DNA from: Candidatus Micrarchaeota archaeon
GTDB taxonomy: Archaea; Micrarchaeota; Micrarchaeia; Anstonellales; Bilamarchaeaceae
Assembly: GCA_043821365.1 (NCBI GenBank)
Contig: JBDRCX010000006.1
Location: 512,001 to 576,000 of the forward strand
Length of the DNA stretch: 64,000 nucleotides
Direction of reading: 5' to 3'
A program made the translations under genes and the position numbers. A model generated the notes under the pieces. The model was not told the origin of the DNA, made no database searches, and was given only the letters and a program-made list of their open reading frames with translations. This document shows positions 19,525-37,030 of the stretch, piece after piece (within the stretch, counting starts at the first letter, position 1; the number at the start of each line of letters is the position of its first letter).

Positions 19525-19565
19525 ATTTCAAAAGATTTTTATTCAACTAGGACGTTATCTTTTCT

Positions 19566-20078
19566 ATGCCAACTGATCCATCTGATATTCTAAATGCTCA
19601 TCAAAAGAAAAAAACAGATGCCATTGCATTTTTCAAAGAGCTTGCCCATATGAATTCTGGTCCAATCTCTCAAAATGTGATTAATATAGATAAAAATTCA
19701 AAATCACTTGCAGAAACAAATTTATTATTTGAAAAAAAATTGTCTGAATTTTCAAAATCAAATATGGATAGTCTTGCTATCTCTAGATTCTGTCTGGCAC
19801 TTTTTTTTATTGAACGTACTAATGAAATACATAATATTGTCTTAACTAAGAATGTGGGTGGGTTATACTCTTTATATACTTCTTTAAGAAACCAAGTTTG
19901 TGATTTATTAAATGAAAAGTATTATTCAGCTTCCAAAGATTATATTCTCTCTTTTTATCTTGATCTTGAACCTTTACTGTGTGCATCTTCTGACTTGTGC
20001 GAATTGCCTGTTCCTGAGATCACAACTATCATGGAAACTTACAAATCAAAAATTGCGGATAGACTTGAGAAACTCTGA
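19566..20078 (+). CDS. Hypothetical helical protein
   Basis: 170-aa ORF; its stop abuts the stop of the convergent gene. Confidence 0.6.
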   Translation: MPTDPSDILNAHQKKKTDAIAFFKELAHMNSGPISQNVINIDKNSKSLAETNLLFEKKLSEFSKSNMDSLAISRFCLALFFIERTNEIHNIVLTKNVGGLYSLYTSLRNQVCDLLNEKYYSASKDYILSFYLDLEPLLCASSDLCELPVPEITTIMETYKSKIADRLEKL

Positions 20079-20987
20079 TCATCTCATGTTTCTAATCCCA
20101 TTCCAACCAGGACTAAAATCTACTGGGTTTCCAATTTCTCTAGTGTGAAGCCCATTTCTTCCTATAACTCTCTCATAGAATTTCAATTCATGTGAATTAC
20201 TATCCATATAGAAAAATGGCGACCTCCCACTTCTAAAAGTAGAATAACCTGTGTTTATTCCATAATCCAAGCTTAACATTGCTTCAGGCATTAATCTTAC
20301 TTCAACCCCAAGTCTTTCATATTTCTTAACTAACATCCTTTGTGTTAATACGTCAATGTCGGTCATGTCTGTTTTTTTATCATAATATTTTGGTTGTATA
20401 AGTAATATTGGTCTACTACCATCATTCACTAAAAATAATCTTCTTCTAAATACAAAATCATCAGCACTGTCTTCTCTTGCAACTATCTGTTTTATCCATG
20501 GTAGTTCTATTGTGCCTACTACTCCGCCTATATGGAAAGTTGGTTGATGTGGTTCTTGGCAATTTGGATGTCCACGTACTAATCCACCATATAATGCAGT
20601 TTCAAAATCTCCAACTTCACCAACTAACAGATTGCCTATAGTGGCAGTTGTTTCTTGTCTCCATGCTACAAAAAGGGCTTCGCCTCTTTCTCTTCCCATC
20701 AAATTATGAAGTTCTCTACGGAACTCTTCTGAGAATTTGAATTCCTGAAATTTATGTGCTAAGTATGCAGAAAATGCATCATCAAGCACAGCTATTGCTT
20801 CTTGAAATGCCTCTTTTCTTCCTCTATAATCAATTCCAACATTTTTTGGGTCATTTAATTTTGTTAAATTTGCTCTTATTATACCAACGTCTGTAGTTAT
20901 CCTATCAACCACTACCTCTCTCCGAGAAAATTTATCTTGTGTATGTGAAAATTGCACTAATCTTTTTGGAGGTTGTCGTCTATCCAT
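20079..20987 (-). CDS. Stand-alone paralog of the giant protein's C-terminal domain
   Basis: Shares FQEFKFS.EFR, WRQ, YGG.VRG..CQ, TFHI.G.VGT.ELPWIKQIV, RRR.FL, QPKY, SGRSP..YMDSN, GLH.RE and GWN with the last ~280 aa of 21573..34907. Confidence 0.9.
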   Translation of the reverse strand: MDRRQPPKRLVQFSHTQDKFSRREVVVDRITTDVGIIRANLTKLNDPKNVGIDYRGRKEAFQEAIAVLDDAFSAYLAHKFQEFKFSEEFRRELHNLMGRERGEALFVAWRQETTATIGNLLVGEVGDFETALYGGLVRGHPNCQEPHQPTFHIGGVVGTIELPWIKQIVAREDSADDFVFRRRLFLVNDGSRPILLIQPKYYDKKTDMTDIDVLTQRMLVKKYERLGVEVRLMPEAMLSLDYGINTGYSTFRSGRSPFFYMDSNSHELKFYERVIGRNGLHTREIGNPVDFSPGWNGIRNMR

Positions 20988-21027
20988 ACTATTCTCTTGT
21001 TACGTAAAGTTTAATAATCTACCACAA

Positions 21028-21564
21028 TTAGCCTACTGCTGTCCTATTCCTTCCACCAGTTCCATACTGTCTTCTTCCGATACTTGCCCTTAGACCTAAA
21101 TCTGGTTTTTTGAGTACTCCATTCTGTCTTACTAAAAGAATTGCTTGTGCTGAAAACTCTCTATCACTAATCATCTTCAGTAGCTGTATAGTTGTTTTAT
21201 TAAGGGCAAAACCAGAACTTGTTACTTTTGATAGTAGTTCTAAACCATATTTTGTAAGTTCCTTTTTTGTTTCTTTATGTCCAACCATCTCAAGTGCTCT
21301 TGTCAATAATACCTGTCCACTAACTTCTACGAATTTCATCCAGTAATCTGTTGATGGAAATTTGTCAAACATCTCACTGATTTTACTAAGTTCTGAGGTT
21401 GAGGTTTCGCCTTTTACTACTGCCACAATTGTTTGGCCAATAATTGCAAGTTTTTTTACATTTTCATTATGATCTCTTGACAACACTTCAACAATTTTGT
21501 TTCCATCCACTTCTCCTGAGTACCATATTAAAGTGAAAAACATTGTTCTTGTATCATCATCCAT
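21028..21564 (-). CDS. Hypothetical protein immediately downstream of the giant gene (candidate immunity or partner)
   Basis: Starts 8 nt after the giant stop codon, with an AGGTGG SD overlapping that stop. Confidence 0.7.
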   Translation of the reverse strand: MDDDTRTMFFTLIWYSGEVDGNKIVEVLSRDHNENVKKLAIIGQTIVAVVKGETSTSELSKISEMFDKFPSTDYWMKFVEVSGQVLLTRALEMVGHKETKKELTKYGLELLSKVTSSGFALNKTTIQLLKMISDREFSAQAILLVRQNGVLKKPDLGLRASIGRRQYGTGGRNRTAVG

Positions 21565-21572
21565 AAAACCAC

Positions 21573-24500
21573 CTAATCCTTAATCAGTTCCCCTGTGATG
21601 TCACGCCTTTCGTTCCAGCCTTTTTGAAATATGTCTGGCTGTCTGTATCCCTCACTTGTACCTGGTTCTCTATAATGCAATCCATGGCGTGCAAAGACTA
21701 TACCTTCTCTTCCTGCTCTAACTACATAACCATTACTATCCATATAATAATATGGCGATCTACCACTTGTGAATGTTCTATATCCTGCATTTGGACCAAT
21801 GTCATTTGCATATGCGTGATCAATGTCTCTTACTCCTATTCCCATCTCTTCATATCTTGTGCGGATGCTTGCCATTACTGCAGTATCTATTTCTGCCAAG
21901 CCTGGCATATCCTTTGCTCCATATTTTGGTTGTGCAACTAATATTGGATTGCCGTCGTCTCCTTGCATGAGGAATATTCTTCTTCTGTATATTATTTCCC
22001 CTGCTGGATTTTTGATCACAATCTGTTTTATCCATGGCAATTCTACTGTTCCAACTATTCCTGCAATGTGGAATGTCTGTTGTGATATATCTTGACAGGT
22101 GCGTTCTCCTCTAACTCGTCCGCCATAAAATCCATCTTCAAAACTTCCAGTTTCAAGTATAGTGTGGGTTGCATCTCCAACTGTTACTTGATCTGCAGTA
22201 TGATTCTGTCTCCAAGTTTCAAATATTCTGCTTCCTCTTTCTTCCCCAACTAAACTAATTAATTCTCCTCTAAATTCGTCGCTAAACTTAAATTCTTGGA
22301 ATCTTCCTTCTGCCATTGCCCTAATTGCTTGATCAAAAACAATAGCAGCCTCTCCGAAACCTTCTTGTGGTCCATAATAGCCAACCAAGTTTTGTGTTGA
22401 TCTTGGTGCAGCTTCCGTAAGATTACCACGATATTGTGTATAATCCATTATCAAATCAATATTTTCTAATATAAATGCAGCTGGAAGTTGGACATCAGAA
22501 GGTATGAACAATTTGCCAATTTCAGAACTAACTGTTTGTGTAAAAGCATCGATTGGAAGAACCCCACCATCGGGCCCAATGAGGTTTCTGCTTATCCTTG
22601 CAAGATCTGCGGGTGATACCTTTCCATCTAAGTATGCATTGTATATAAGGTCCATATAATCTATCTTCCCTCTTGTTCTACTACTTCCTAAAAATTCTGC
22701 TTTATCTGCTTTTGTTGCTCCATCTCTTGCAATATATTCCAATTCTGCTCCTACTAATCTTAACCATGGTTCTACTGTTGTGTTCCCACTTGAATTGAAG
22801 ATATTGTCCATTAAATCTGCAACTTGTCTGAAATTTGCATGACTTCTTAGTTCCTTTCTTATAGCATCGCTACTCAATGCACGCAATACTAAACTTCTTG
22901 GAACTGGTCCAGTTTCAGGTAGTAAATATGTTGCAAAAGGAAGCCTATTTGGTCTTACACTTAGTTGGTCTGCTCTATCTGCAGTTATATCACCAAGAAG
23001 TATTGTTTCTTGCCTTGTTTTTCTCCCAACCTTAACATCAACTCTTATAGCAAGTGCTTCACTAAGAACCCCAAAATCTAAATTGTCTAAATTGCTTCCA
23101 ATCAATTGCATATATGCTTCTCTTGATTCTGCAGTTGGAAGTCTACTAACATCATCAAATAGATATTCGAAAATATGTTTTACTACAGCTCCTCTTGCAT
23201 CCGGATCTGTTATCTGATCTAGTGGAATTCTATCGAGTAGTCTTCTGCTTGTTTCTGTTGCTTGCTCAAGCATTCTGAAACTATCAACATCAGTTGGCCT
23301 GAAATTATCAAGCAGTCCATTTCTAACTCCTGGTTTGACCTCATGTGAGAGCAGGGGTACTGGATCCACTCCAAGTAAATGAAGTTTTGCTGCAAATCCA
23401 AGAACATTACCAATTTGTCCTATAGTTATAAATCCTTCAACCTGCGCATAATGCAAATGTTCATCAAGTGCTGCAACTGTTCTTGAATATGCCTCAAGCA
23501 TCTGCACTCTTGTTTCTTCTGGTGCTGTTCTTCTGATTGTTTTTGCACCTGCCATGACAGCATCCCTCATCATCTCAGGACTGCTGGAAAGAGATTGGTC
23601 AAGTGTGTCTAAAATGTGTGTTTCTTTTGCACTATTAACTTCTCTACTTATTTCTCCTTCGTAATATGTGCGTAATTCTGCAGGTGTCATTCCATCGTCA
23701 GCTATTCTGACCAAGAGTATATTCTCTACGCCATCATATTCAAAATTAAACTGAACATTCCCATCTTCTCTAATTACTGCTTCATATGTTACTCTGCTTG
23801 GAAGATCACTTTCTTCCATCCCTAATATTGATCTGCTTGGTGGTTTTGTTACATCTGGTCTTTTTACTACGACTTCTCTTCCTGCATAAACATCATCTGC
23901 TGCTTGAGAAATTGGATTTCTTAATATTGTGGTTCTGTCTCTTCCATTTGTGAAATCAGTTGGCACATGTGAATCATCAGCAACACCAATCAAGTGGGGG
24001 CTATCTTCTGGTGCTCTGCTAGTATGGAGTCTTGCAGGGGCTGTTTTTCTAAGTGGATCTATTACAACAAATCCACTTCCTCTTCCATATGCCTCACTCA
24101 TGCTTGCATCTAAATTGGTAACATATCCTCCAGCTGCCCTAACTCCTTTTCCTCTGGAATGGCCAACATAAATATGATCAACACCAAGTGCTTCTCTCCA
24201 TTGAGCTGCAATCTCCTGGCTCATAATTGGTGCCCATCCATGCCTTCCTTCAACATATGCAGAAGAGTAATCTCCACTTTCCATAACTCGTATGTCTCCA
24301 AATACTGTTCCCCAATGGTTATCTGCAGTAGTAAATAATCTTTGGAAATGTGCATCCAACATTTCAGGACTTGTAATTAACTGCCCATCACTTTGCAATA
24401 CTGGTCCACCATGTGTGAAATAATTATTATCTATTATTACTGCTGCTCTTGACTGTTCAATGAAATGCATGAAACTTCCTTCTATTACTCTTCCTTGCTG

Positions 24501-27500
24501 ATCATAATTTTCATGTATGAAATTTTCCCAACTTCCATATCTTTCAATAATCGATTCAAATGTTTGGTCCACACCAACACGGCTCCACTGCTTCATGGCA
24601 CCCATTATGTCATCTGCATTGGCCTTCCCTTCAAATACGGCTCTAACCTCTTGATCGCTTGAACCTCTATAAAATTCTACAAATCTTCTAAACAATTCTT
24701 CATGATTGCCTCTCAATGCATGCACCCTAGTTCCTGTTTGCCCACCATCTGATTTCATCTGGCTTACTAATTCCACAACATCTACGCTTGTTGGTCCACG
24801 ATCAATATAATCTCCCATAAAAACAATCTGGCTTCCTTCTGGTAAATCTGGGTTTAGTCTATACCTCTTGGCAGGTGGAACATATCTTGGATCAGTTTTT
24901 GGCAATGTTCTTGGTATCCCTTCCATAGTGTCAATTAAGATTCCTTGTCTAAGGAATTGGTCAACAACACCATAAACATCTCCATGCACATCACCAATTG
25001 CTATTACCTGACGTGCATTTTGGATTACATCAACATAAGCACCTTGTTTCATGGTTGGTGGTGAACTTTCTATTGCTTCAAGGACTGTTCCATATCTATC
25101 TGCTATTGCAATTGCTTCATCTAAACTCCCAGTTCTAATTGCTTCTTGGTACGTTGCATCACTACCAAGTTGTTCAGCAAGCATTCTTTCGTTTGCAGTT
25201 CCTAATTTACTATCTTCAGCAATTAAATGAAGGCGGCGTCCTAATTTTGTACTTTCTGGTATCCTTTTTCCAAGTTGTTGTTCTTGTACTGCTAATTCTA
25301 CTTCTCTTTCTTGTTGTCTAACTCTATACCTATATGCATGGTCTGGTTCACCAGTTCTTTTTTGTACTGGTGCTAATCTCGGTGCATCATCAACTATTGC
25401 AAGTGACATTCCGTCTGGTGATCTTGTTATTGCCTGGCGCCTTATTTCAAATGTTCTACCCTCGGTTAATACAAAGTCTTGAAATGCTTCAAGCATATCA
25501 GCTCCACGTGGTTCTGGTAATCTCCTAAGTTTAATTACAAGATCCTCTACTTTCCGTAATTGTGGATTTTTTCTTATTACTTCAGTAATGTCCCTAAGTT
25601 TACCAAGCCCTAATCTTGTTAATGTATCATCATTACCTATTGCCATTGCAGCAATAATCGCATCTGCACTATCATAATTTTCTGAACCCCACAACATCCT
25701 CAAGCGTCCATTTGATATTGATGCCATTGCATCTGCAAAGTTTGCGTTTTCAATTGGTACTGCTCCTTGTTTTTGTACACTCATTTTTACTCCTGCACTA
25801 TGTAATTGTTCATCGATAACTCTTGCCATCACAGTTGCATCAGCAGGTGTTCCGCCTTCAATCACATATTTCATTGTTCCTAAACGTCTTACTGTGACAC
25901 CGTGTTCTGTTGCATATCTTGCAACTGCAGCTTCTACAGTACTAACAAGGTAATTTGCACCATCATGGCCAAGGAATGTATTGAATCCACGCAAACCAAA
26001 TGCATTTCTTTCTACTTCTGCATATCCTTTTCCTGTTATCTCTAAGTATGGTGTTTCAACTGTTCTTTCTACTCCTGGAAGTCTTCCTCCTATATCAACA
26101 TAAGCTTGATTATCATCTATTTGGAGCCTTACTTCAAATGCAGTTCCGCTAACTGTTTCTCCATCTCCAACCTGCCCTATTGATTCTGATAGTTTCCATC
26201 CAACTCCTGTTCTTACCCCTAATCTTTCTCTAAGTGATGGTGCAAAACTCAAAGAACCATCTTCTTCTGCTCTAGTTATTAGCCCTTCTAAAAACCCTAT
26301 TCTGCTTTCAGAACGCTGCAACATGGCATCGCTTCCATCAGCATGTACTGCAACTGCTCTTCCGTCTTCTGCTCTTCCAACTGTTACTGGTCTGCTAATA
26401 TCATATGATGCTTCAATTAATCTAAGTGGGTCTGTCATTAATGAAAGTGAATATCTTAATCTTCCAGAACCATCTGATGCCGTGCTAATTCTTTGGAATT
26501 CAGCATCAGTAACTGCTCTCATTTCTTGTCCTAGTCTTGTTCTAACGTCTTCTCCTTTTCCTTTTGGTACTATTATGATTCCTACTGCTTCATCCCCACC
26601 TCCACTTGGTGGGCGTATTATGTGTGCAGTTTGTTCTTGACTATCCCCAATGATCCTTCTTACTGCTCCTTGTATTATGTCTTGATAAACTCCAAGAGCT
26701 TGATCCCCAACTTCTTCTCCAAACATTTTATTGATCTGACTTAGTGATTTTTTATCTGGTCGTATTACGATGACATCCATTTCTTGTCCTTGCATTGCGT
26801 CCGACAGAATCACATCTTCGATTGATCTAACCATTCTTCCAATTGAAACTTCTTCGCCAGCAACAGCTTCATGTCCAATCAACCATTCGGGTTGCCCTGT
26901 TCGTACTAACTCACCATCAATCAACTCAACTCCTGCACGTCTGAGAACATGTCCAACTACATCATCAGTTTTGAAAAGTTCGCGACTAGGTCGCAATCTT
27001 ACAAATTCACCTGCTTCAATTGATTCTGGTTCAACTACTGGTGCCCTAGTTTCTGGTTCAACTACTTTTGTTTCTGGTCCTCTTGTTCTACGTCCTTTGC
27101 TAATAGGAGTAGGTTCAATACCCTCTGCTCCAACAGCAATTGGCATCGCTGTTTCAGTAACTCTTGCTTGTGCACCTACTTTTCTTGGGTGCCCAACCAT
27201 AAGTTTTATCACAATTGTTGGGCTCCCTTCTATATCTTGAGATACTGCAAAACATCTTGCTTTTGCTTCTGGTGTATCTGGTATCTCACCACGTATGGCT
27301 GCTTGATCAACAAGATCTTCAAATTTTATTTCTGCTACTGGTCTTCCTGTTCTTTTTGATGCTTCTAAAACAATTTCTGATGTTTCAAAGCCAGCCATTC
27401 TTCGTAATGCTTTCAAATTCTTTCCTGGTTTTGTTGGGCTGAGTTCTCCTCTTTGTATCCCACTGCCCATTGCTATTTTTGCTTCTTCAAATAATGTGAA

Positions 27501-30500
27501 TTCACCTTCATATTTTCTTACCAAATGAGCAGGTCTTCCTGAAACTAGTGAGTAAGTATCTTCAGATGTTGTTAATCTTCTTACTAATGAATGTATTGCA
27601 GTTCTTCCTGCTTGTCCTTCTTGAGTTGCACCAAACAATCCAATTCTTAGTTCTCCTCTTGGTGTTCTGCTTGCAGTTGCAAATGCAACTATTCTTCCAC
27701 CCTCTCTTGCTACAAACCAAATTGGTGTTACTTCTGTAAATAATTTTTCAGGATTACTATAATGTAAGTCTGCAGCACCATAAGCTTCATCATAAAGTCT
27801 TTTTATCTCAGGCCAAGCTGCTGCTCGTTCTTGTTCAGTTATTTCAGACCATGGTCTTTTACCATCAACTTCAATATCAGTAATTGCTCTTTTTCTTTCA
27901 ACAAATTCCTGGCTTTCATCATGCCTAACTGGTTCAAGTGTTCGTAATTTTGCAGCCAATTTTTCAGTTCCTTGCTCAATTCTTGTTGCAAATTCCTCTA
28001 GTTGTTTTGCTCTTGCTGTTTCTCCTGCCTCGCGTAAAACCTTTGCTTCACCTCTGAATCTACTTACATTTGCTTTTCTTCTTGTTATAGTTTCTCTTAG
28101 ATTCTCTACTGTTACTGGTCTTTCTAGTAATCGTTGTTCTTCAGACATTGCCCTTATTACTATAGCTTCTGGTTGCCTTGCTATTTCTGGTATTTTCATT
28201 GCTGCATCAAGACCAAATTCCAACTGTCTTGCTCTGCTTTTTCGATTAGCTAAATATTCAGGATTTAATGCAAGTTCCATTGCATGCCTCTGAACTTTTT
28301 CAGGTTGCCCTCTAAGTGCTTCTGCCACAAATGCTCTTTTTTGTTCTGGGGGCAATGAAGCAAATTCTGGATTATTAAGAATTCTCTCTGCACTACTTAC
28401 AATTCTCAGTGCAGTATCAACATGTTCAGAAGAATAAGTTTTTTGTTCTTCTCCTCTCCCTAATCTATATGTTGTTCCATCTTCACCGGGTTCTATGAAT
28501 CTACTTTTTAATTGTGCATGCAAAACTTGTTCTGCTGCTCTTTCACGACGTTCCCGCATTTCTGTTGTTCTATCTACAGGGGCATCTTGTTCTGCATCGT
28601 GGGGATGTCCTCCTGGTATCTCAGCTTCTGGAGGATTAAGGAAATATACTTCGGCTTCTGCCAAAAATTTCTCAGTTGCTGCAGCACCTAGTGGTCTAAA
28701 TTCAGTTCTTCCGCCAACTTTTCTTGTTGGTATTCTATCCATGAATACCAATCCTTCTTCTGGTGTAAGACTTCTTCCTAATCGCAATTCCATCTGGCCA
28801 TACAAAGTTTTTTGTGTCTCACCAAGTTGGCCGAATCTTTTTCCATGTTGGGCTCTTAGTGCGGTTGTCTCTGCAAGGCTCATTGTATGAACGGTTTCTC
28901 CAGTCAGGCCAGTCATCACTCCTCTGAAAATTTTTGCTCCTCTTGTGTCTTGGGATGTTCCAGCAACTCTCCATGCTCTTGCAGTTCTTGTTGGTGCAAC
29001 ATGCGCTCCAACTGGTGCTGTTGCTTGTACTACACCAAGTACACCAGTTGTAAAGAATTCTAATCCACCTATATCTCCATGTATCCATGCTTTTCCAGAT
29101 TCATAGGCTCCATAACCTGCCATTCCAAGGCCGCCTGCCATTAGCCCCCCACCAAGGACGGTGATTCCTCTCCCACCAGTTCCCATCATACTACTAAACA
29201 TTGTCACTCTGCCAACTGCAAGAGATTCATTTGCAATTCCACTTAAACTACCAAGTGCTGCACCACCAAAACCCAAAACAACTCCACCTACTCCAAGTAC
29301 TTGTTCTGCTGTACCCATCTGCGAAAATCCACCTGATCTTCGGCTATTTTCTGCTAGATCATGAAGTGCCTTTGTTCCAAATCCAACACCAACAACTGCT
29401 CCAAAACCAGTTGCAGTAAGTCCTAGTGCAAGAGTAAGTTCAACTCCTGCCTGTATCCCTCTTGCAGTACTTTCAGAACTCTGGCCTTCTTTTAAAAGGC
29501 GGCCATAGTCTGTATCATATTGTCCTGCAAAATCTGATGTTTCTGCATACAATCCTTGAATGTATTCATCAGTAGCTGGTTTTCCACCTTGTAATCTATT
29601 CTGCAAAACTCCATTTATAACTTCTAAATCATGATCTGCATAAGTAGCTACAACATCATACATTTGTTTTCTTTCACTATATGACCAAATTGTTGTAAGT
29701 CCAAGATGAACTCCGAAATAATCGCCAAGCAATTGGCTTATACCTTTTATGTCTTTTGTCCCTGTTGCATGCGCAAGAACAACTTTGTGTTCTTCTGGTG
29801 TGAGGCGTACCTGGGTCCATCCATCATCTTCGTCCCAGGCTATTCCCATTTTTGCAAATGTTGCAGTTGTGTATAAGTCAGCTAATTTTATTGGTTCGCG
29901 ATGTGCTGCAAGAGCAAACCTGTCTCCTTCAACATGTTTAAATCCAACAGAATATGTTTGTAGCGAATCTAGATATCCATGCATGGCAGCGTATAATGCA
30001 TGTGGAATGTCATCATAATCAGCACCGGCACTAATTTTAGCATCATCATAAACTCCGTCTCGGTCTCTTATCTTTACCTCTATTGCCGGTAGACTGACCT
30101 GCCCCCCGCTTAATATTTTGCGTGTGATTCCTTCAGGATCAGATGCAGCTGCTCTTCCAATTTGGAGTAAGTCTGCTGCTCTCCATCTTAGATTCATGTT
30201 AAAAGGGCTGTAACCATGGGTTCTTACGTACTGGTCAACATTATCAAATAGCATTATTGAATCTTCCAAACAACTCATGGCAAGTTGAGCACCAGCATTG
30301 AATTGATCCACTCGTGTACTAATTCTACTAAACTCAAGATCAGCTGTTAATTGTGCATGCAATCCGGGTCTTATCTGATCATGTTCTTGAAGATAAGCCA
30401 ACCCCTTTCTCATTGGTGTGCCATCTTCTACCATTTCTTCATAAACTGCCTGGCCTCCTTTTTCTATTCTTCTTTGATTATATATCCTACCATTAAATCC

Positions 30501-33500
30501 ATTTGTGGCTTGATATATCCCCCATATCAAATCCCTACTATATTCTGGTTTGAATGTATCTGCATATCCTTCTGTTAACATTACATCAATTGATGTTCCA
30601 AGCACTCTTGAGGTTTGTACTAAATCTTCTCTGACTTCTTTTGCATTTCCTGCAAGGGCTCTTGTTATTCCTGTGGCAAGTACAGCATCCAAAACTTGCT
30701 GGTGTGCTCCTATTGCTGCATAATCTATTTTTTCATCACCTTGTGGTATCTCTTGTGGTTTTCCAAATTCGCCTAAGTTGTGTTCAAGTCTTGTAAGTTC
30801 AACTTCTCGTTGTCTTAAGTATTCCATCTGACTAAGTCTTTGCATTCCTACCTGGTAGACTGAAGCAAAACTAGCAAAACGTTGATTGGTTTCATCGATT
30901 GTTCCGTCCAGTTCTCCTGAACCTACTCCTCCACGGCTTAGTTCTGCAATATCACCATCAATTAGATGAACAACCTCAGCAGTCTGAAGTCTTAAGTGAT
31001 GAGCAGTATCAGATAATTCACTTGCGTGATGGACTATTATTTCTCCTATTTCTCCCTCTTTCATCTCACCGTGTGTTCTTTCGATTTTATCTTCCATACT
31101 AGCTAATCTTCCTGCATTCACTTCCAAACCAGTTTTTTGATACATTCTTCTAATCATTAACGGTTGGTTTGCTGTAAATTGATCTAGTTGTATTCTAACG
31201 TATTCAAGTTGTTGATCTATTGATTCAGGTGTACTTGTTCCGTTCACCATTCTATCAATTTCATCATCAACTTTTCCTGCAGCTGCATCAAGCTCTGCTG
31301 CTAAAGTTGCCGCACCACTTGCAATAATTTGCCGTGATTCTTGTGTTCTCTCTTTTGTTTCTGGTTCCATTCCCTTTCCTTCGGTGGTGTCTGCATATTG
31401 TTGCATTAATGCTTCTGCCTGTCTTTCAAATGATCCTCTTTCCAACAATAACATCTGTGATTGCTGTGCAAACTCAACTCTTTTTGGGAATGTTGCAAGT
31501 CTTAGTTCAACTTCCCTAAAGTTTCCTGTGGCCCTGGTCATATCAATGCTATAAACTTCTTCCATAAGGCCACGGTAATCAAATCCCACAACTACTGGTT
31601 CACCATCATTGCCAGTTTTTATCTCAGTTCTTAATACCTCTCCATCTCTTTGGCTGTCATCAGCCATATCAAATAACATTGCATGTTGCTGGTGAATGTC
31701 TACTTTTCTCTGATCTAATTGAATTCCAAAAACCGCACTTTTCAATGTTTTCTGAGCGTGTCCAAATCTTTCTCTTCTTGCATATCTTTTCGCAAGTTCA
31801 AGTTCTTGCATTCTTGCCTGTGTATCAAGTAAAGGAGTGCCTGCTTCTATTGTTGCACCAGCATGTTCTACAGTTGCTGCTAAGGTTATCGCACCCTCTT
31901 CTCTCCCGCTTCCATGTTGCTGGTCAAGTTCTCTAAGTCTTGCTTGTTCTGCTTCTATGCTTTTTACAAAACGTGCAACAGTATGCTGTATCTGTCTTTC
32001 TCTTCCAACTTTGGCCCCTCCTTCTAACATAGTATATGATGCACCTGCAATCATCCTACGTTGAGTGTCATCAAGTTCTGGCTCTTCAATTTTGGATAAC
32101 TCAAGTAATATTTGTGCAGCTTCATCATACTCTTTTCTCCCTCGGTATCTGTGTATTGTTCTTATTGTTGTTATGCTTGAATGAAGTTGCAATAATGCCT
32201 GTTGGCCTTGTTGGGAAAGATAAATCATTCTCAATCCTTTTTGTTCTAAAACATCTGCTTCTGGTGTGCCTGCTTTCCTCATTGTTCTTGCTTGTTGGAC
32301 TAGTTCAAGTCCCCTTGAATAACTGGTACTAAATCCTTCTGCCATTGTTGTTATCCTTTCGTAATCTATCCTCTCAGCTTCTTGGGTCTGTATATCTGCT
32401 TCCAGTATCCTTCCTGCTTTTTCAGCAACTGTGGCTTTCCTTTCGTGGTAACCACTTTGTGCTGTATAAGTAGCACCAATCCTTGTTTGTTGTGTTGGTG
32501 TTGTTCCAATTATTTTAGAACCAGTTCGCTGGAATTCAAGTAGCATTAATCGACTATCATGTTCCTGCTGTATACTTTCAAGTGAAGCAATTCGTTTTGT
32601 ATCACCAACTGGCAGAAGTGCTACTAGTTTTTCATCTTCAGAAGAATTAATTGTATTTATGAAACTATTTCCACTGATCAAAGCAGTTCCTAATGGTCCA
32701 GATAGTGTTGTTGGTACAAACCTTTGTGGATTTCCCTCTTCTAAAAGCATATCAAGTATCCGGTGGTCACCAAGTGCAGTACTACCCCTATAATCGCCAA
32801 GAACAGTCCTTACAAATTCTGGTATTTCCTTCTCACCTGGCTGCTTTGCTGCTCTACAATAAAGATCAGCAAGATCTCTTACTCTTTCTGCCCCTTCAAC
32901 ATCCCCTCTTGCAAACAAAACCTCTGCTGCATCATAGTATGCTTGTATGTTCCTTCGTACACTAGAGCTTGGTATCCCTTCCATTCCCTTTTGTTTTCTT
33001 AGTTCTGCCTCGAGTATCCATCTGACTTTTTCTACAGGTAGACTTTCAATTTCCATTCTTGTTATCTCATCTGCTATGGTTGCTACATCTCTGTCATTTA
33101 TTGGTCTCGAGCATGCATTTGCTCCAAGGATATATACAAGAAATTCTTCTTGCGATTTATCCCCTTCTATTGCATCCTGTGCTCTATGTAAGATGTCTAT
33201 TGTTCCGTAGAAGGCCAAATCTCTTGCTTTGCCTGTGATATCAGCTACGTTGCCAAGTGTTCTCAAGGAAGGGTCCAATGTATGGATTCCATCTCCGGCT
33301 ACAAATGATGCAATCTGTTCTGGCTTTCCAAGGTAAAGTATTTGCATTCTTCCATACGCTGTTCTTTCTTTATCAGTTAATTCTTCACCATTTGCAATCT
33401 TTTCAAGTAACCTGTCCATATACTCTATCGGGCGACTGTACAAATCAGTAAGATCAATCTGTTTTTTCTGTCTTGCAGTTTCATGTAACTCAAGAATTGC

Positions 33501-34907
33501 AAGTTGTGTTTTGGTTATCTCAATATAAACAGCAGTTTCCTGAACATGTTCACCTGCTGTTAGTGATATGCCATGAAGCTGTGCTCGTTTTTCTGGTGTT
33601 GTTAATTTATTGGCATATAATTGGCTAAGTTCAATTTGTATTTGCATCTGAGTACTATCACTAGAAGCCATGGCAGCAAAAATTCTCTCATGAATTCCGT
33701 TGAATTGTTCTAATTGTTCTGAACTCATGGATTGATAACTTTTCAAATAAGTTTCAACTATTTTTTGTAAACCGCTTGCAGTATATACCTGTTGCAATGT
33801 TGCTTCATCTGTTTTCAAACCAACTATTGCATCATGCAGTCCACCTACTGTTGGAATTTCTTGGCTTTCAATGTCTGCAATTAGATGATCTCTGATCTCA
33901 TTTCTAACTGTTGCTTCATCTTTTCTACCAGTTACTAAGTCGTCGCTCCATGTTGCTAATTTTTTCCTAAATGCACTATCAGCAGTTTCATACTGAGCTA
34001 ATATGTATTCATATAATGCAAGCTCATCTTCTTTCAGTGTTCCTTGTTCAGCAAATTCTGTTCTCAATTCTTTAACTCTTACATACATTCCTTGGATAAA
34101 ACTTGGTGGGGCATCACGCATTCCTAAATCTTGTAGGTGCTCTATCATTCCGTCTATTCCGGCAAGCTTTTGTTGCTTTAGAATCCCAACACCATCTCTG
34201 AATCTTTGCATTACTTCTTGGAGTTCTTGATTATTTTCATCAGTAAATTCTTGTCCTGCATCTATCTGTCTCTTAAGAACTTGTGACACTTGGATGATAC
34301 CCTGTCCAAGGCTACTTTGCGGTGTTATATACTGTTTATTAGAAATAAAAAATTCTGATAATTCTATCAATCCCTTAATCCTTTTTTCAGATAGGCCATA
34401 GTCTTGGAAAGATGCACGCAATGCCTCAGTCAGTTCTTGTGGTGCATCGACAAGTCTTTTTTCAAGCGCTATTATAGTTACCAATCCAGTAAGTTTTGCT
34501 TCTGCTTCATCCATCAATTCTCTTGATTTTTCTAGCTGTCCGGTTCTCATTTCCTGTATGCTTTTATCTGCTAAACTTCTAATGCGTGCAATCTCTGGCG
34601 TATACTTGGTTAATGATTCACCATCTAATCTTTCGGATATCTGTCCATCCAATGCTCTACGTCTTTGTTCAACAGCTTCTACAGTTGGTAATGTTGATCC
34701 AAGTGCTCCTGCAGTTTCTGCAAGTTGAGTTCTAGCATGATCAGCAGCTGCAGTAGCTTCTCTTAATTCCCGTTCTGCTCTAGCACGTGGCCCTCTTCTC
34801 GGAGTTATGCTTGCCAGTCCACCTGCAACGTCTCGTACTTCCCCTACAACTCGGTCGGCCTGTCCTACAGCAAGTTCAACATCAGTTGGTCTAACCTGTT
34901 CAGCCAA
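21573..34907 (-). CDS. Giant 4444-aa multidomain protein (helical N-half, Gly-rich hydrophobic segment, GNAT-like, 2x GGDEF-like, PPP phosphatase, unknown C-terminal domain)
   Basis: Uninterrupted 13.3-kb ORF; AGGTGA SD 4 nt before the TTG; domain motifs listed as separate features. Confidence 0.93.
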   Translation of the reverse strand: MAEQVRPTDVELAVGQADRVVGEVRDVAGGLASITPRRGPRARAERELREATAAADHARTQLAETAGALGSTLPTVEAVEQRRRALDGQISERLDGESLTKYTPEIARIRSLADKSIQEMRTGQLEKSRELMDEAEAKLTGLVTIIALEKRLVDAPQELTEALRASFQDYGLSEKRIKGLIELSEFFISNKQYITPQSSLGQGIIQVSQVLKRQIDAGQEFTDENNQELQEVMQRFRDGVGILKQQKLAGIDGMIEHLQDLGMRDAPPSFIQGMYVRVKELRTEFAEQGTLKEDELALYEYILAQYETADSAFRKKLATWSDDLVTGRKDEATVRNEIRDHLIADIESQEIPTVGGLHDAIVGLKTDEATLQQVYTASGLQKIVETYLKSYQSMSSEQLEQFNGIHERIFAAMASSDSTQMQIQIELSQLYANKLTTPEKRAQLHGISLTAGEHVQETAVYIEITKTQLAILELHETARQKKQIDLTDLYSRPIEYMDRLLEKIANGEELTDKERTAYGRMQILYLGKPEQIASFVAGDGIHTLDPSLRTLGNVADITGKARDLAFYGTIDILHRAQDAIEGDKSQEEFLVYILGANACSRPINDRDVATIADEITRMEIESLPVEKVRWILEAELRKQKGMEGIPSSSVRRNIQAYYDAAEVLFARGDVEGAERVRDLADLYCRAAKQPGEKEIPEFVRTVLGDYRGSTALGDHRILDMLLEEGNPQRFVPTTLSGPLGTALISGNSFINTINSSEDEKLVALLPVGDTKRIASLESIQQEHDSRLMLLEFQRTGSKIIGTTPTQQTRIGATYTAQSGYHERKATVAEKAGRILEADIQTQEAERIDYERITTMAEGFSTSYSRGLELVQQARTMRKAGTPEADVLEQKGLRMIYLSQQGQQALLQLHSSITTIRTIHRYRGRKEYDEAAQILLELSKIEEPELDDTQRRMIAGASYTMLEGGAKVGRERQIQHTVARFVKSIEAEQARLRELDQQHGSGREEGAITLAATVEHAGATIEAGTPLLDTQARMQELELAKRYARRERFGHAQKTLKSAVFGIQLDQRKVDIHQQHAMLFDMADDSQRDGEVLRTEIKTGNDGEPVVVGFDYRGLMEEVYSIDMTRATGNFREVELRLATFPKRVEFAQQSQMLLLERGSFERQAEALMQQYADTTEGKGMEPETKERTQESRQIIASGAATLAAELDAAAGKVDDEIDRMVNGTSTPESIDQQLEYVRIQLDQFTANQPLMIRRMYQKTGLEVNAGRLASMEDKIERTHGEMKEGEIGEIIVHHASELSDTAHHLRLQTAEVVHLIDGDIAELSRGGVGSGELDGTIDETNQRFASFASVYQVGMQRLSQMEYLRQREVELTRLEHNLGEFGKPQEIPQGDEKIDYAAIGAHQQVLDAVLATGITRALAGNAKEVREDLVQTSRVLGTSIDVMLTEGYADTFKPEYSRDLIWGIYQATNGFNGRIYNQRRIEKGGQAVYEEMVEDGTPMRKGLAYLQEHDQIRPGLHAQLTADLEFSRISTRVDQFNAGAQLAMSCLEDSIMLFDNVDQYVRTHGYSPFNMNLRWRAADLLQIGRAAASDPEGITRKILSGGQVSLPAIEVKIRDRDGVYDDAKISAGADYDDIPHALYAAMHGYLDSLQTYSVGFKHVEGDRFALAAHREPIKLADLYTTATFAKMGIAWDEDDGWTQVRLTPEEHKVVLAHATGTKDIKGISQLLGDYFGVHLGLTTIWSYSERKQMYDVVATYADHDLEVINGVLQNRLQGGKPATDEYIQGLYAETSDFAGQYDTDYGRLLKEGQSSESTARGIQAGVELTLALGLTATGFGAVVGVGFGTKALHDLAENSRRSGGFSQMGTAEQVLGVGGVVLGFGGAALGSLSGIANESLAVGRVTMFSSMMGTGGRGITVLGGGLMAGGLGMAGYGAYESGKAWIHGDIGGLEFFTTGVLGVVQATAPVGAHVAPTRTARAWRVAGTSQDTRGAKIFRGVMTGLTGETVHTMSLAETTALRAQHGKRFGQLGETQKTLYGQMELRLGRSLTPEEGLVFMDRIPTRKVGGRTEFRPLGAAATEKFLAEAEVYFLNPPEAEIPGGHPHDAEQDAPVDRTTEMRERRERAAEQVLHAQLKSRFIEPGEDGTTYRLGRGEEQKTYSSEHVDTALRIVSSAERILNNPEFASLPPEQKRAFVAEALRGQPEKVQRHAMELALNPEYLANRKSRARQLEFGLDAAMKIPEIARQPEAIVIRAMSEEQRLLERPVTVENLRETITRRKANVSRFRGEAKVLREAGETARAKQLEEFATRIEQGTEKLAAKLRTLEPVRHDESQEFVERKRAITDIEVDGKRPWSEITEQERAAAWPEIKRLYDEAYGAADLHYSNPEKLFTEVTPIWFVAREGGRIVAFATASRTPRGELRIGLFGATQEGQAGRTAIHSLVRRLTTSEDTYSLVSGRPAHLVRKYEGEFTLFEEAKIAMGSGIQRGELSPTKPGKNLKALRRMAGFETSEIVLEASKRTGRPVAEIKFEDLVDQAAIRGEIPDTPEAKARCFAVSQDIEGSPTIVIKLMVGHPRKVGAQARVTETAMPIAVGAEGIEPTPISKGRRTRGPETKVVEPETRAPVVEPESIEAGEFVRLRPSRELFKTDDVVGHVLRRAGVELIDGELVRTGQPEWLIGHEAVAGEEVSIGRMVRSIEDVILSDAMQGQEMDVIVIRPDKKSLSQINKMFGEEVGDQALGVYQDIIQGAVRRIIGDSQEQTAHIIRPPSGGGDEAVGIIIVPKGKGEDVRTRLGQEMRAVTDAEFQRISTASDGSGRLRYSLSLMTDPLRLIEASYDISRPVTVGRAEDGRAVAVHADGSDAMLQRSESRIGFLEGLITRAEEDGSLSFAPSLRERLGVRTGVGWKLSESIGQVGDGETVSGTAFEVRLQIDDNQAYVDIGGRLPGVERTVETPYLEITGKGYAEVERNAFGLRGFNTFLGHDGANYLVSTVEAAVARYATEHGVTVRRLGTMKYVIEGGTPADATVMARVIDEQLHSAGVKMSVQKQGAVPIENANFADAMASISNGRLRMLWGSENYDSADAIIAAMAIGNDDTLTRLGLGKLRDITEVIRKNPQLRKVEDLVIKLRRLPEPRGADMLEAFQDFVLTEGRTFEIRRQAITRSPDGMSLAIVDDAPRLAPVQKRTGEPDHAYRYRVRQQEREVELAVQEQQLGKRIPESTKLGRRLHLIAEDSKLGTANERMLAEQLGSDATYQEAIRTGSLDEAIAIADRYGTVLEAIESSPPTMKQGAYVDVIQNARQVIAIGDVHGDVYGVVDQFLRQGILIDTMEGIPRTLPKTDPRYVPPAKRYRLNPDLPEGSQIVFMGDYIDRGPTSVDVVELVSQMKSDGGQTGTRVHALRGNHEELFRRFVEFYRGSSDQEVRAVFEGKANADDIMGAMKQWSRVGVDQTFESIIERYGSWENFIHENYDQQGRVIEGSFMHFIEQSRAAVIIDNNYFTHGGPVLQSDGQLITSPEMLDAHFQRLFTTADNHWGTVFGDIRVMESGDYSSAYVEGRHGWAPIMSQEIAAQWREALGVDHIYVGHSRGKGVRAAGGYVTNLDASMSEAYGRGSGFVVIDPLRKTAPARLHTSRAPEDSPHLIGVADDSHVPTDFTNGRDRTTILRNPISQAADDVYAGREVVVKRPDVTKPPSRSILGMEESDLPSRVTYEAVIREDGNVQFNFEYDGVENILLVRIADDGMTPAELRTYYEGEISREVNSAKETHILDTLDQSLSSSPEMMRDAVMAGAKTIRRTAPEETRVQMLEAYSRTVAALDEHLHYAQVEGFITIGQIGNVLGFAAKLHLLGVDPVPLLSHEVKPGVRNGLLDNFRPTDVDSFRMLEQATETSRRLLDRIPLDQITDPDARGAVVKHIFEYLFDDVSRLPTAESREAYMQLIGSNLDNLDFGVLSEALAIRVDVKVGRKTRQETILLGDITADRADQLSVRPNRLPFATYLLPETGPVPRSLVLRALSSDAIRKELRSHANFRQVADLMDNIFNSSGNTTVEPWLRLVGAELEYIARDGATKADKAEFLGSSRTRGKIDYMDLIYNAYLDGKVSPADLARISRNLIGPDGGVLPIDAFTQTVSSEIGKLFIPSDVQLPAAFILENIDLIMDYTQYRGNLTEAAPRSTQNLVGYYGPQEGFGEAAIVFDQAIRAMAEGRFQEFKFSDEFRGELISLVGEERGSRIFETWRQNHTADQVTVGDATHTILETGSFEDGFYGGRVRGERTCQDISQQTFHIAGIVGTVELPWIKQIVIKNPAGEIIYRRRIFLMQGDDGNPILVAQPKYGAKDMPGLAEIDTAVMASIRTRYEEMGIGVRDIDHAYANDIGPNAGYRTFTSGRSPYYYMDSNGYVVRAGREGIVFARHGLHYREPGTSEGYRQPDIFQKGWNERRDITGELIKD
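24000..25020 (-). other. PPP-family Ser/Thr phosphatase (metallophosphoesterase) domain within the giant protein
   Basis: IAIGDVHGD, FMGDYIDRGPTS, LRGNHEE, FTHGG and VGHS all present in order. Confidence 0.92.
25700..26140 (-). other. Degenerate second GGDEF-like domain within the giant protein
   Basis: FGLRGFNTFLGHDGAN matches F..xN..xGH..GD; RRLGTMKY replaces R.GGDEF. Confidence 0.5.
26350..26800 (-). other. GGDEF-like nucleotide cyclase domain within the giant protein
   Basis: D..(8)..INKMFGEEVGDQAL followed by IIRPPSGGGDEAVGI; GGDE at about 26589-26600. Confidence 0.75.
27500..27830 (-). other. GNAT-like acetyltransferase domain within the giant protein
   Basis: WPEIKRLYDEAY...WFVAREGGRIVAFAT...LRIGLFGATQEGQAG fits GNAT strand/helix order. 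Confidence 0.5.
28990..29460 (-). other. Gly-rich hydrophobic (putative membrane-inserting) segment within the giant protein
   Basis: LTLALGLTATGFGAVVGVGFG, VLGVGGVVLGFGGAALGSL, VLGGGLMAGGLGMAGYG, FFTTGVLGVV. Confidence 0.7.
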
Positions 34908-34915
34908 ATCTTCAC

Positions 34916-35230
34916 CTAATTTTTCGTATAACAGATATTTACAAATTCCTGCAGCATATTAATGCGTTCGTTGTAATCTCGTCTTCTATTTTTTGTAATT
35001 AAAACTTTCTTTTCCCATTCACTCAAAGCAGTGTGTAATTTTTTGTACCCCGTAAATTTTGGTTCAAGGTCTTTTGGTCTTGTTTTTGCATTATCCCATT
35101 TTGCAATTGCATCTTCAAGTACAGAAATAGTGTTATTGACTTTTTCAATAACCTTCTTTTCAACAAGATCTATGTTTGATTCATTGACTGGTTGACCAAA
35201 TTCAAAATCTTTATTCTTGTTGTTATCCAT
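34916..35230 (-). CDS. Hypothetical small helical protein at the head of the giant-gene cluster
   Basis: Ends 8 nt before the giant start; 104 aa. Confidence 0.65.
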   Translation of the reverse strand: MDNNKNKDFEFGQPVNESNIDLVEKKVIEKVNNTISVLEDAIAKWDNAKTRPKDLEPKFTGYKKLHTALSEWEKKVLITKNRRRDYNERINMLQEFVNICYTKN

Positions 35231-35340
35231 GGTTCCCCTCTATACTCTTTGCTTATCTCTTATTTTTATATATTCCTCTCACGTAACCTTGTTTTCGATT
35301 CAACGCCAAGTTTTTTAACTGATCCCAACAAATAATTTTT

Positions 35341-35874
35341 ATGGCAAATACTCAGTCACGGCCTCCTAATTTGCGTCTTATCAAAGGTGATCACACCACA
35401 CCATTCAATCGTTCCAGAACTGAAGTTCTATTATCTGAAATTCAAACTGGTGGCCCGTCTTATATGAAAATAAGGGAACTTTCAAAACAAATAAAATCAA
35501 AAATTGCTTTTTTGGAAGCAGAATTGGCAGATGATGGGAAGAATCTTCGTAGTGGTCTTCAAAATTTCTTAGCTGTCATGGCAAGCAGTAGAAAAGATGA
35601 ACTAACTGGCAGTGGTGTTGACTTTAGGGATCCTTCTGATCCTAAAAAAGTTGCTGTTAGTCTTGTGAGTGGTGAAACAGATTCTCCTGAAGCACAACCC
35701 AAAATTGATCAAATTATAGCTAGTTGCATAGAAGTTGCAAAATCAGATGTTGAATTTTTAAGAGAAGTTCTCATCTCAACTAGAGACAAAGGTTCGGTTA
35801 CTCATGAACAATTTCCTAAATTAAAAGATATTTTAGAAAATAATAGTTATTGGCGCTTTATTGAACCAACTTAA
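35341..35874 (+). CDS. Hypothetical protein
   Basis: 177-aa ORF with Pro/Arg-rich N-terminus. Confidence 0.6.
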   Translation: MANTQSRPPNLRLIKGDHTTPFNRSRTEVLLSEIQTGGPSYMKIRELSKQIKSKIAFLEAELADDGKNLRSGLQNFLAVMASSRKDELTGSGVDFRDPSDPKKVAVSLVSGETDSPEAQPKIDQIIASCIEVAKSDVEFLREVLISTRDKGSVTHEQFPKLKDILENNSYWRFIEPT

Positions 35875-35875
35875 A

Positions 35876-37030
35876 TTATTCAGGATGAGCAGCAGCACTT
35901 GTAACTTTTAATTGCACTACTTTTTTTGGATCAGACCACACTGGAGCTGTTTCATGTTGGTGCGTATTTTGATGGTTTTCATTATGCCCCATTGGTCCTT
36001 CATGTAATGGGTGATGTTCCTCATGATGTGTATTACCATGTCCACCATGCCAGAATCCACCAACTAATCTTGAATGTCCTGGGTGTAAATGTGCATCAGC
36101 TTCAAACACTGCTCCTTCATGATGCCCCCCATGTGAATGATGATCATGATGTTCTACATGTGCATGATGTCCTTCTATGTGGCGATGAGTACTATGATGT
36201 TCTCCGTGATTACCTTCATGATGATGTTCACTACGGTGTCCTTCATTGGTATGATGACTTCCATGATGTTCCTCATGATGTGTATTACCATGTCCACCAT
36301 GCCAGAATCCACCAACTAATCTTGAATGTCCTGGGTGTAAATGTGCATCAGCTTCAAACACTGTTCCTTCATGTGAATGATGTTCTTCATGTGCATGATG
36401 TGATCCATGCTCATGATTGTCATGATGAGATTCTCCATGTTGATGCCCTTGTTCATCATGGTGATGACCTATATGCGGTTCTCTATCCTGTGCATGATGT
36501 TGTTCATTATGAGAAGAATGTTTCTCTTGATTTCCATGTTCTGCATGAGCATGTTGTCTGTTAGGACCAGCATATAAAAGTTGGATTAAGTTTCCGTGTG
36601 TTTCATAACCAACTATTTCCACTTGTTCCTGTGCTGCTGTTTCTTTTTTTGTAGAAACACCAGTTTCGTTTTGACCTAGTTTATCAAATAGGGGAGTTGT
36701 TTTTCGTTGTTCTACATAATAATTATGTTTCATCCCACCAGTTGCTCTGTCTGCGTAGGTCCATACTCTTGCCCGCTTTCCATATGTGTATATACCTCCG
36801 CATGCTGCACGGGGGGAAATCCAGACTGTTTTTTGTTTTTTGGGTTTTTGTAGAGTGTGGTGCCCGGGTTCAATTAATCTTGGTATTTGTACTGGGTGAT
36901 GTATAAATTCAACTAACTGTGATGGGTGATACATAGCCCCAACTAGTCTTGGTCTTCGTAGTGAAGGCGGTTCAATTTTCGGAATTGGCATTTTTCTCTG
37001 CGCAATTCCAGCACTAGTCTTAATCATCAA
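35876..37030 (-). CDS. Histidine-rich low-complexity protein with an internal duplication
   Basis: His/Glu/Gly-rich C-terminal half; two copies of HEG(T/A)VFEADAHLHPGHSRLVGGFWHGGHGNTHHEEHH. Confidence 0.72.
   Translation of the reverse strand: MMIKTSAGIAQRKMPIPKIEPPSLRRPRLVGAMYHPSQLVEFIHHPVQIPRLIEPGHHTLQKPKKQKTVWISPRAACGGIYTYGKRARVWTYADRATGGMKHNYYVEQRKTTPLFDKLGQNETGVSTKKETAAQEQVEIVGYETHGNLIQLLYAGPNRQHAHAEHGNQEKHSSHNEQHHAQDREPHIGHHHDEQGHQHGESHHDNHEHGSHHAHEEHHSHEGTVFEADAHLHPGHSRLVGGFWHGGHGNTHHEEHHGSHHTNEGHRSEHHHEGNHGEHHSTHRHIEGHHAHVEHHDHHSHGGHHEGAVFEADAHLHPGHSRLVGGFWHGGHGNTHHEEHHPLHEGPMGHNENHQNTHQHETAPVWSDPKKVVQLKVTSAAAHPE
36012..36373. repeat. 110-bp direct repeat pair (36012-36121 and 36264-36373)
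   Basis: 109/110 identical by direct comparison; offset 252 nt, in frame. Confidence 0.95.

Follow-up and report, generated by a model that had tools for sequence, protein, structure and literature searches.

The window analysed here is a stretch of 64,000 nucleotides from a Candidatus Micrarchaeota archaeon (assembly GCA_043821365.1, contig JBDRCX010000006.1, positions 512,001 to 576,000), whose genome comprises 1.2 Mb in 6 contigs and is 87% complete. Our subject is a gene located at 21573–34907 on the minus strand of this window, which encodes a giant protein of 4,444 amino acids (aa) from a TTG start in a single open frame. A preliminary description, made from the sequence alone, had pointed out a single 13.3-kb open reading frame (ORF) with 8-nt gaps on both sides. 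This was confirmed; a 104-aa gene lies upstream and a 178-aa gene downstream, each separated from the giant gene by 8 nt. Together with a 302-aa gene further downstream they make up a native operon of four genes on the same strand.

The first gene of the operon (34916–35230, minus strand) encodes a lysine-rich 104-aa protein that is helical by composition and a candidate chaperone or partner of the giant. In each of the seven related loci that were fetched, a homolog of this gene adjoins the giant; in six of them it is located directly upstream. The 178-aa gene (21028–21564, minus strand) encodes a predicted binding partner of the giant's C-terminal module, and its homologs are found directly downstream of a giant in six other loci (seven with this one). 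The last gene, located 40 nt after the 178-aa gene (20079–20987, minus strand), encodes a free 302-aa paralog of the GNAT-fold domain that ends the giant, and the last 280 residues of the giant are 44% identical to it (E 9e-68). The order giant, 178-aa gene and free copy of the terminal domain is also seen in the related loci G247, L024 and L027 (four loci in total); the 294-aa (L029) and 315-aa (L028) genes found after giants are unrelated to the terminal domain. PADLOC assigned no defence family to the giant, the 178-aa or the 302-aa gene. It gave one weak match of the 104-aa gene to NsnC (E 0.0034), which was disregarded.

The G+C content at third codon positions (GC3) of the giant gene is 0.20, compared to 0.18–0.23 in housekeeping genes, and its total G+C is raised (0.40 vs ~0.35). 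This combination indicates that the difference is explained by amino acid make-up and not by foreign origin. The surrounding genes are housekeeping genes, encoding RNA 3'-phosphate cyclase (RtcA), a tRNA-editing domain protein, a RecJ-like DHH protein, ProRS and tRNA-Gln. No capsid, integrase, transfer or secretion genes adjoin the operon. Three type IV pilus-type ATPases are encoded in the genome, the closest ~80 kb from the operon, and a secretion system matching the giant, as sought in the preliminary description, was not found nearby.

Contigs from three public runs of two studies were matched to positions 20000–36000; none of the public runs listed for the stretch is of RNA. They cover all 30 bins of this region without a single mismatch inside the gene, and identical pieces from an independent biofilm study span the junction between modules A and B as well as that between the phosphatase and the C-terminal module. 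An assembly chimera, a concern raised in the preliminary description, or a decaying pseudogene seen as one frame would fit the thin public read support (depth ~5–7, with fragmented short-read contigs of which none covers the whole ORF alone), but both are extremely unlikely given the mismatch-free pieces from independent sources bridging the junctions, a frame free of stops over 13.3 kb in a region of 38% GC, the intact catalytic motifs and an end-to-end layout that is repeated in more than 20 independent giants. The giant ORF is a genuine gene.

Domain architecture of the giant

The N-terminal scaffold (aa 1–1800; 29508–34907, minus strand) is weakly conserved, with 22–31% identity to the giants of related genomes. 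By hydropathy, no hydrophobic stretch occurs before residue 1820, and thus no Sec-type signal is visible, in agreement with the preliminary description. The scaffold is followed by a glycine-rich hydrophobic segment (aa ~1810–1970; 28998–29480, minus strand) with two to four putative membrane helices. The segment, which had also been recognised from the sequence, contains 22.5% glycine over residues ~1810–1965 and has hydropathy peaks at 1821–1844, 1870–1891 and 1946–1964. It is kept in the relatives, where it carries an ATG[FLY]G or TGG motif. A language-model search gave a lead to the pre-toxin TG (PT-TG) family at 0.87 for this segment. A Pfam scan of the membrane segments from 13 homologs gave nothing significant, the resemblance to PT-TG being weak and below threshold (one of the 13 members at E 0.042).

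The middle of the protein carries the enzyme-like modules. The only domain seen by the sequence libraries (Pfam, NCBIfam and PHROGs) is a calcineurin-like phosphoesterase at 3301–3462. The preceding piece, 2324–3170, was folded with an alignment of relatives (predicted local distance difference test score, pLDDT, of 71) and compared exhaustively to 48,161 solved chains, and all of the top 50 rows were GNAT or GGDEF domains. Neither residues 2100–3200 nor the profiles of modules A and B gave anything significant against the sequences of solved structures, and no shorter homologs of 2100–3200 were found.

Module A (aa 2340–2590; 27138–27890, minus strand) is a GNAT-fold acyltransferase-like domain according to the fold search (Foldseek probability 1.0). 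Residues 2348–2578 match more than 25 GNAT structures with Z scores of 7.4–8.6 over 130–166 aligned residues, in support of the GNAT-like module that had been proposed. The alignment conserves an acetyl-CoA loop of the form E-G-[RKQ]-x-A, and no Pfam match was obtained. The same module is found elsewhere along the protein in the homologs P0002, P0008, P0009, P0010 and P0020.

Two consecutive GGDEF domains had been proposed next, of which one stood. Module B1 (aa 2680–2884; 26256–26870, minus strand), identified by fold search, motifs and a language-model lead, matches solved GGDEF domains with Z scores of 8–9.2 over 140–150 residues. The best match is 3hvw (Z 9.2, root-mean-square deviation 3.6, 140 of 159 residues aligned), and pLDDT in this region of the model is mostly 70–90. 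Motifs of the GGDEF type can be read from it: the first strand carries an acidic residue, an N is conserved, a GD pair is present, and the signature at 2770 is GGDEA, in place of which homologs carry RGDE or KGDE. PF00990 was not reported in the Pfam search even at E<=1. Module B2 (aa 2905–3164; 25416–26195, minus strand), the ~250 residues after B1, is possibly a degenerate palm-like domain. In homologs it always occurs with B1 or alone, and it shares a K..N.FG-like motif. Profile comparison of B1 and B2 using hhalign (E 0.19 over 12 columns) gave no support for a second GGDEF domain. The only hints of a two-palm arrangement are the topology and a weak Foldseek row to Cas10/Cmr2 (E 1.8e-3). 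A stand-alone copy of the GGDEF-fold module is encoded in the same genome (contig C1, 9710–11389; L032). This free 559-aa protein is 26% identical to residues 2700–3048 of the giant (E 1.6e-12) and contains 5.4% lysine and 10.9% arginine over a stop-to-stop frame of 577 codons.

Module C (aa 3177–3690; 23838–25379, minus strand) is a PPP-type metallophosphatase, as had been read from the sequence. Pfam Metallophos matches with 36.2 bits (cut-off 21.5; E 1.1e-8), the PHROG match is a NinI-like Ser/Thr phosphatase, and the set of PPP motifs is complete: GDVHG at 3305, GDYIDRG at 3365, GNHE at 3400, HGG at 3499 and GH at 3582. Judged by folds and motifs, module A is an acyltransferase of the GNAT fold, module B a nucleotide cyclase of the GGDEF fold together with a companion domain, and module C an intact phosphatase of the PPP family, their activities being predicted.

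The end of the protein had been described as a tip of no recognisable kind. It instead consists of a helical repeat and, after it, a GNAT-fold domain, and it belongs to the conserved C-terminus of these giants. Residues 3765–4444 were modelled by AlphaFold2 with 38 relatives (pLDDT 90, predicted template modelling score, pTM, 0.86). The helical repeat (aa 3765–4213; 22269–23615, minus strand) opens the C-terminal module, and TAL-effector and designed-repeat rows among its Foldseek PDB matches were set aside as generic helical repeats. The GNAT-fold domain (aa 4214–4444; 21576–22268, minus strand), modelled over ~4214–4439, matches NatD (4u9w) with a Z score of 7.6 over 150 residues, and GNATs fill more than 25 of the top 50 rows. 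Foldseek gave a probability of 1.0, and Acetyltransf_1 clusters in the Atlas matched at TM 0.53–0.60. At the sequence level, residues 3690–4444 gave nothing significant against the sequences of solved structures. The canonical Q/R-x-x-G-x-G/A acetyl-CoA loop is absent from the terminal domain. Its beta4-alpha3 loop reads QPKYGAKD, in which Q, P and Y are conserved and no G-x-G is present. The sole invariant column in the alignment of 38 sequences is C4271, located in the loop that joins the first helix to the second. The entire protein of 4,444 residues contains five cysteines, and C4271 is a possible catalytic residue.

When the terminal module and the 178-aa protein were modelled as a complex, the interface score (ipSAE, interaction prediction score from aligned errors) was 0.81, compared to 0.00 for the best control. 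Of 80 solved complexes 58 reached this value, as did 2 of 110 mismatched pairs, counts that apply only roughly here (own alignments). Three runs share at least 71% of contacts, and the pLDDT of the partner is at least 79. The predicted interface comprises module residues 504–507 (corresponding to C4271), the beta4-alpha3 loop at 563–574 and D626 (D4390 of the giant), in addition to the helical repeat. According to this prediction, the module clasps the 178-aa protein, which lies over the presumed catalytic face of the module, an arrangement that would suit an inhibitor, a substrate or a subunit alike.

The family and its lysine content

When the scaffold was searched for among 301 genomes of the phylum, it was found in 7 of the 64 genomes belonging to the same taxonomic family, in 6 of the 21 belonging to the genus, and in 0 of the 236 other genomes searched. 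A word-based search returned two giants, one with scaffold and membrane segment and the other with the phosphatase module only. When the profile of the C-terminal module was run against 1.84 billion representative proteins, 45 matches were obtained. Most of these form the extreme C-terminus of proteins of 3,500–7,250 aa, some are free proteins of ~300 residues, and a few remote matches end proteins of 750–1,460 residues. All titled genome records of the family are Micrarchaeota or an unclassified archaeon. The related loci come from groundwater and mine samples, in records titled Candidatus Micrarchaeota. No relative of the C-terminal module was found among 2.9 million viral contigs. Among the remote homologs, P0044 (1,383 aa) ends in the same cysteine-bearing GNAT-fold domain and has sub-threshold matches to a protein kinase (E 4.7e-6) and to pre-toxin TG (E 8.5e-4). 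P0031 is located on a contig of 1.7 kb.

The relatives have a common frame, consisting of the scaffold, the glycine-rich membrane segment and the C-terminal module (27–47% identity), around middles that vary. The modules are ordered A-B-C in the giant studied here, B-C-A in P0008 and P0009, C-A in P0020, and B-C in P0023. A Pfam search of the variable middles of six other giants found only PolyA_pol in P0002, which is a nucleotidyltransferase of the poly(A)-polymerase type, and a Metallophos match in P0008; the middles of four lysine-free giants gave no Pfam family. The suggestion that enzyme domains would prove to be shuffled on a conserved N-terminal scaffold was therefore correct as to the differing content and order of the modules, but the C-terminus is itself a part of the frame. 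No paper on this giant family was found in the literature. Based on its sequences, this appears to be an undescribed and rare family restricted to Micrarchaeota, and the modular giant resembles no described system in the libraries and literature searched, as the preliminary description had anticipated.

The absence of lysine from the first 100 residues had also been noticed, and the first lysine of the giant is indeed residue 101. Overall the giant contains 3.6% lysine and 8.3% arginine, compared to 8.4% and 3.8% in the median protein of the genome; other large arginine-rich proteins of the genome contain 3.4–3.6% lysine. The depletion goes further in the relatives. Four of the seven giants from related genomes are nearly lysine-free, or purged (5 lysines in 4,508 residues, 9 in 5,183, 15 in 4,217 and 5 in 3,094), and the small genes flanking the lysine-poor giants encode 8–20% lysine. 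Lysine-free runs in the database homologs extend over 1,444–3,492 residues; the longest in this giant is 147. The arginine codon is mostly AGA, a single transition from AAA. In the terminal module, the purged homologs have arginine at the lysine positions of this protein. An exception is K4207, part of an F-K-F-S motif, which 9 of 11 purged homologs retain.

Lysine-rich copies of the giant are carried by the two genomes of 60% G+C, which is the opposite of what mutational bias would lead one to expect. In a tree of the terminal module, the purged state is scattered and implies at least 4–5 changes, and the sister of this protein is a purged copy (support 100/100). The retention of K4207 and the repeated changes of state argue for selection and not bias. 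The giant is therefore, by its sequence, best described as a half-depleted intermediate in a family that appears to be under recurrent selection against lysine. To our knowledge the lysine avoidance in the sister copies is the most extreme known, and it could serve as a marker, readable from sequence only, of proteins that probably face an unusual hazard. The producer encodes proteasome subunits and an E1-like enzyme, so that the hazard may be internal or in a host, and lysine avoidance need not implicate the host. A third possibility is that lysine is avoided as a protection against self-acylation by the giant's own GNAT domains.

Further large or lysine-poor ORFs were observed. In a related locus (G282, L018:17222–18868, minus strand), a 549-aa ORF with one lysine and 10.7% arginine is located on the opposite strand, just past the partner gene of the giant. 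Within the window, an ORF of 1,746 aa (58277–63517, plus strand; 1.3% lysine, 1.6% arginine) and a second of at least 1,656 aa starting from 63510 are poor in both lysine (~1.3%) and arginine (1.6–1.9%). By composition alone this suggests surface proteins, unlike the arginine-rich giants.

Additional genes share the neighbourhood of the giants. In genome G244, a second 104-aa homolog precedes the start of another giant on contig C10 (L021/L022, joined 22292–24001), downstream of the first giant and after four genes related to the 170-aa and 196-aa ORFs described below; this second giant has 4 lysines in its first 436 residues, and the first giant contains 5.6% lysine. In the window, two paralogous ORFs of 196 and 170 aa (18934–20078, plus strand) converge on the end of the operon. 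Four relatives of these are found beside the giant in G244/L026, and they may share the gene neighbourhood of the giants. A 177-aa ORF (35341–35874, plus strand) diverges from the start of the operon and has a relative, 36% identical, beside the giant in L025. A second giant operon is present in the same genome (contig C6, 437416–447267; L030 and L031). It is headed by a 111-aa paralog of the 104-aa gene, followed by an ORF of 3,134 aa (3.6% lysine, 9.7% arginine, no Pfam family) and a 732-aa protein that carries a GDSL lipase domain, and it is flanked by arginine-rich ORFs of 1,624 and 1,296 aa. No BLAST similarity was found between the proteins of this second operon and the giant of the window.

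Possible roles of the giant

Micrarchaeota live attached to other archaea (PMC8975820). The patchy spread of the family, the shuffling of modules, a terminal enzyme that seems to be guarded, a glycine-zipper block in the middle of the protein and a lysine purge that spares the partner genes are habits of interaction or conflict proteins. Combined with the attached lifestyle, these traits lead us to favour, tentatively, a role of the giant as a host-directed effector acting at the site of contact. Such a role is suggested indirectly by the membrane segment, by the predicted cover of the terminal domain by its partner and by the purge of lysine in the sister giants but not in their partner genes. 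The giant would be inserted via its glycine-rich segment into the membrane where the partner (host) cell is contacted, and the enzyme modules would be presented or delivered there, leading to altered protein acylation, phosphorylation and nucleotide signalling. Inside the producer, the 178-aa protein would block the terminal acyltransferase-like domain, and the upstream 104-aa protein may be a chaperone.

Several observations weigh against a contact-site effector. The giant lacks a signal peptide, secretion genes do not adjoin it and no sign of export was seen, and all recognisable modules are of cytoplasmic type and could act within the producer. If the membrane helices are even in number, both halves of the protein would lie in the producer's cytoplasm. 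Furthermore, the copy studied here is not lysine-free, its longest run without lysine being 147 residues, the producer has a proteasome and an E1-like enzyme of its own, and the model of modules A and B is of moderate confidence only (pLDDT 71).

These observations are in part what one would expect of a protein that works at home. In such a case, the giant would stay in the membrane of the producer, both of its halves facing the cytoplasm, and would work as a scaffolded machine of signalling or regulation by cyclic nucleotide synthesis, dephosphorylation and acylation, and the 178-aa protein would be a regulator or a substrate. The lack of a signal peptide, the cytoplasm-type enzymes, the native codon usage and the housekeeping neighbourhood are all consistent with this, and the proteasome and E1-like enzyme could drive lysine avoidance from within. 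We nevertheless consider an internal hub somewhat unlikely, as the giants occur patchily, in 7 of 64 genomes at the level of the taxonomic family and in 6 of 21 at that of the genus, and since fast shuffling of modules and recurrent switching on and off of the lysine purge are typical of conflict or interaction genes and not of core regulators. The small partner genes, moreover, are unpurged.

The contact-site effector can be put in a more specific form, which we regard as unlikely in all its particulars: the giants of Micrarchaeota would be delivered by contact, enter the membrane of the partner by means of the glycine zipper and act in its cytoplasm, with the small protein restraining the terminal acyltransferase in the producer, and the replacement of lysine by arginine in the sister copies would counter lysine-directed tagging or degradation in the recipient.

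The order of terminal domain, small gene and free copy in four loci, the partner predicted over the catalytic face and the weak pre-toxin TG signals also recall a weapon against rival archaea built like a polymorphic toxin, in which the terminal GNAT domain would be the toxin, the 178-aa protein its immunity protein and the 302-aa protein an orphan toxin module. This is improbable, given that conservation within the family is highest in the C-terminal domain, that no separate partner gene accompanies the free copy and that the pre-toxin TG similarity is below threshold.

Phages and conjugative elements also encode multi-enzyme giants of a similar style, known as polyvalent proteins. A cargo protein of this kind, delivered with the DNA of an integrated virus or plasmid, would fit the language-model search, which placed the terminal domain near partly viral clusters, and the weak rows obtained with a viral fold library (E >0.002), which include PcfJ-like proteins and phage GNATs, but it is very improbable considering the lack of relatives in the viral contigs searched, the restriction of PHROGs matches to the phosphatase, the native GC3 and the housekeeping neighbours without capsid, integrase or transfer genes.

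Little is known of the ways in which DPANN archaea manipulate their hosts or feed on them, and we know of no effector proteins defined in Micrarchaeota. The family offers concrete candidates, with a map of modules, a predicted pair of enzyme and partner, one invariant cysteine and one retained lysine. If the giants are contact-delivered effectors, they would represent the first equivalent, in archaea, of injected multi-effector toxins. If they instead act within the producer, they would still be an unusual giant signalling scaffold in a genome of 1.2 Mb.

Comparison with known systems

Lysine deserts are defined as lysine-free runs that extend over 150 residues or more, or over half of the protein or more. 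The sister giants share with them the replacement of lysine by arginine, in lysine-free runs of up to 3,492 residues, whereas the giant of the window falls below the definition (147 vs 150). Published deserts have been linked to evasion of lysine-directed tagging, in the catalytic chains of toxins and in connection with pupylation, and a review of them mentions archaea once (PMC13696103). No lysine desert in archaea, or of this size, was found in the literature.

Giant multi-enzyme proteins have been described from other microbes that are ultra-small or predatory, namely the Archaeovorins of Omnitrophota (bioRxiv 10.1101/2023.11.21.568195) and SPEARE-type proteins of Nanohaloarchaeota (discussed in PMC10266531). 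Giant size, several domains, mixed enzyme content, host-dependent cells and a proposed action on the partner cell are common to these and the giants studied here. Their domains, however, are envelope-degrading, adhesion or nuclease domains, whereas the present family has acyltransferase, cyclase and phosphatase modules, a dedicated partner and purging of lysine, and no sequence relationship was found.

The terminal domain and its partner can be compared to the GNAT toxin-antitoxin pairs TacT/TacA, AtaT/AtaR and KacT/KacA, which consist of a GNAT-fold enzyme and a small protein. As in these pairs, a small protein lies over the active face of the GNAT domain, here by prediction. The gene order is reversed, and the domain is fused to a protein of 4,200 residues, lacks the usual acetyl-CoA loop, has an invariant cysteine and shows no sequence similarity to them.

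MARTX toxins of Vibrio and relatives were the model on which the preliminary description based its multi-effector protein. The likeness holds for the giant polypeptide with a variable set of enzymatic modules, and for glycine-rich regions that are thought to engage the membrane. It fails in other respects. Neither Pfam nor NCBIfam found an RTX or HemolysinCabind family in the giant at E<=1, Pfam found no C80 cysteine protease family, and the conserved cysteine of the giant is instead located in a GNAT-fold domain. No type I secretion genes are found beside the giant, which belongs to an archaeon with a single membrane, and its membrane segment is central and hydrophobic, not based on repeats.

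Classical polymorphic toxins such as CdiA, Rhs, MafB and LXG resemble the giant in having a small gene right after the terminal domain, whose product is here predicted to bind, a free extra copy of the terminal domain downstream, and a glycine-rich segment with a TG motif before the enzyme part. They differ in that the terminal domain of the giant is conserved (27–47%) and its middle variable, and in that no known trafficking domain was recognised in the giant, its PT-TG similarity staying below threshold. Since the defining features that can be tested are lacking in both comparisons, the giant is, as judged from its sequence, neither a MARTX toxin nor a classical polymorphic toxin, although it may work like either.

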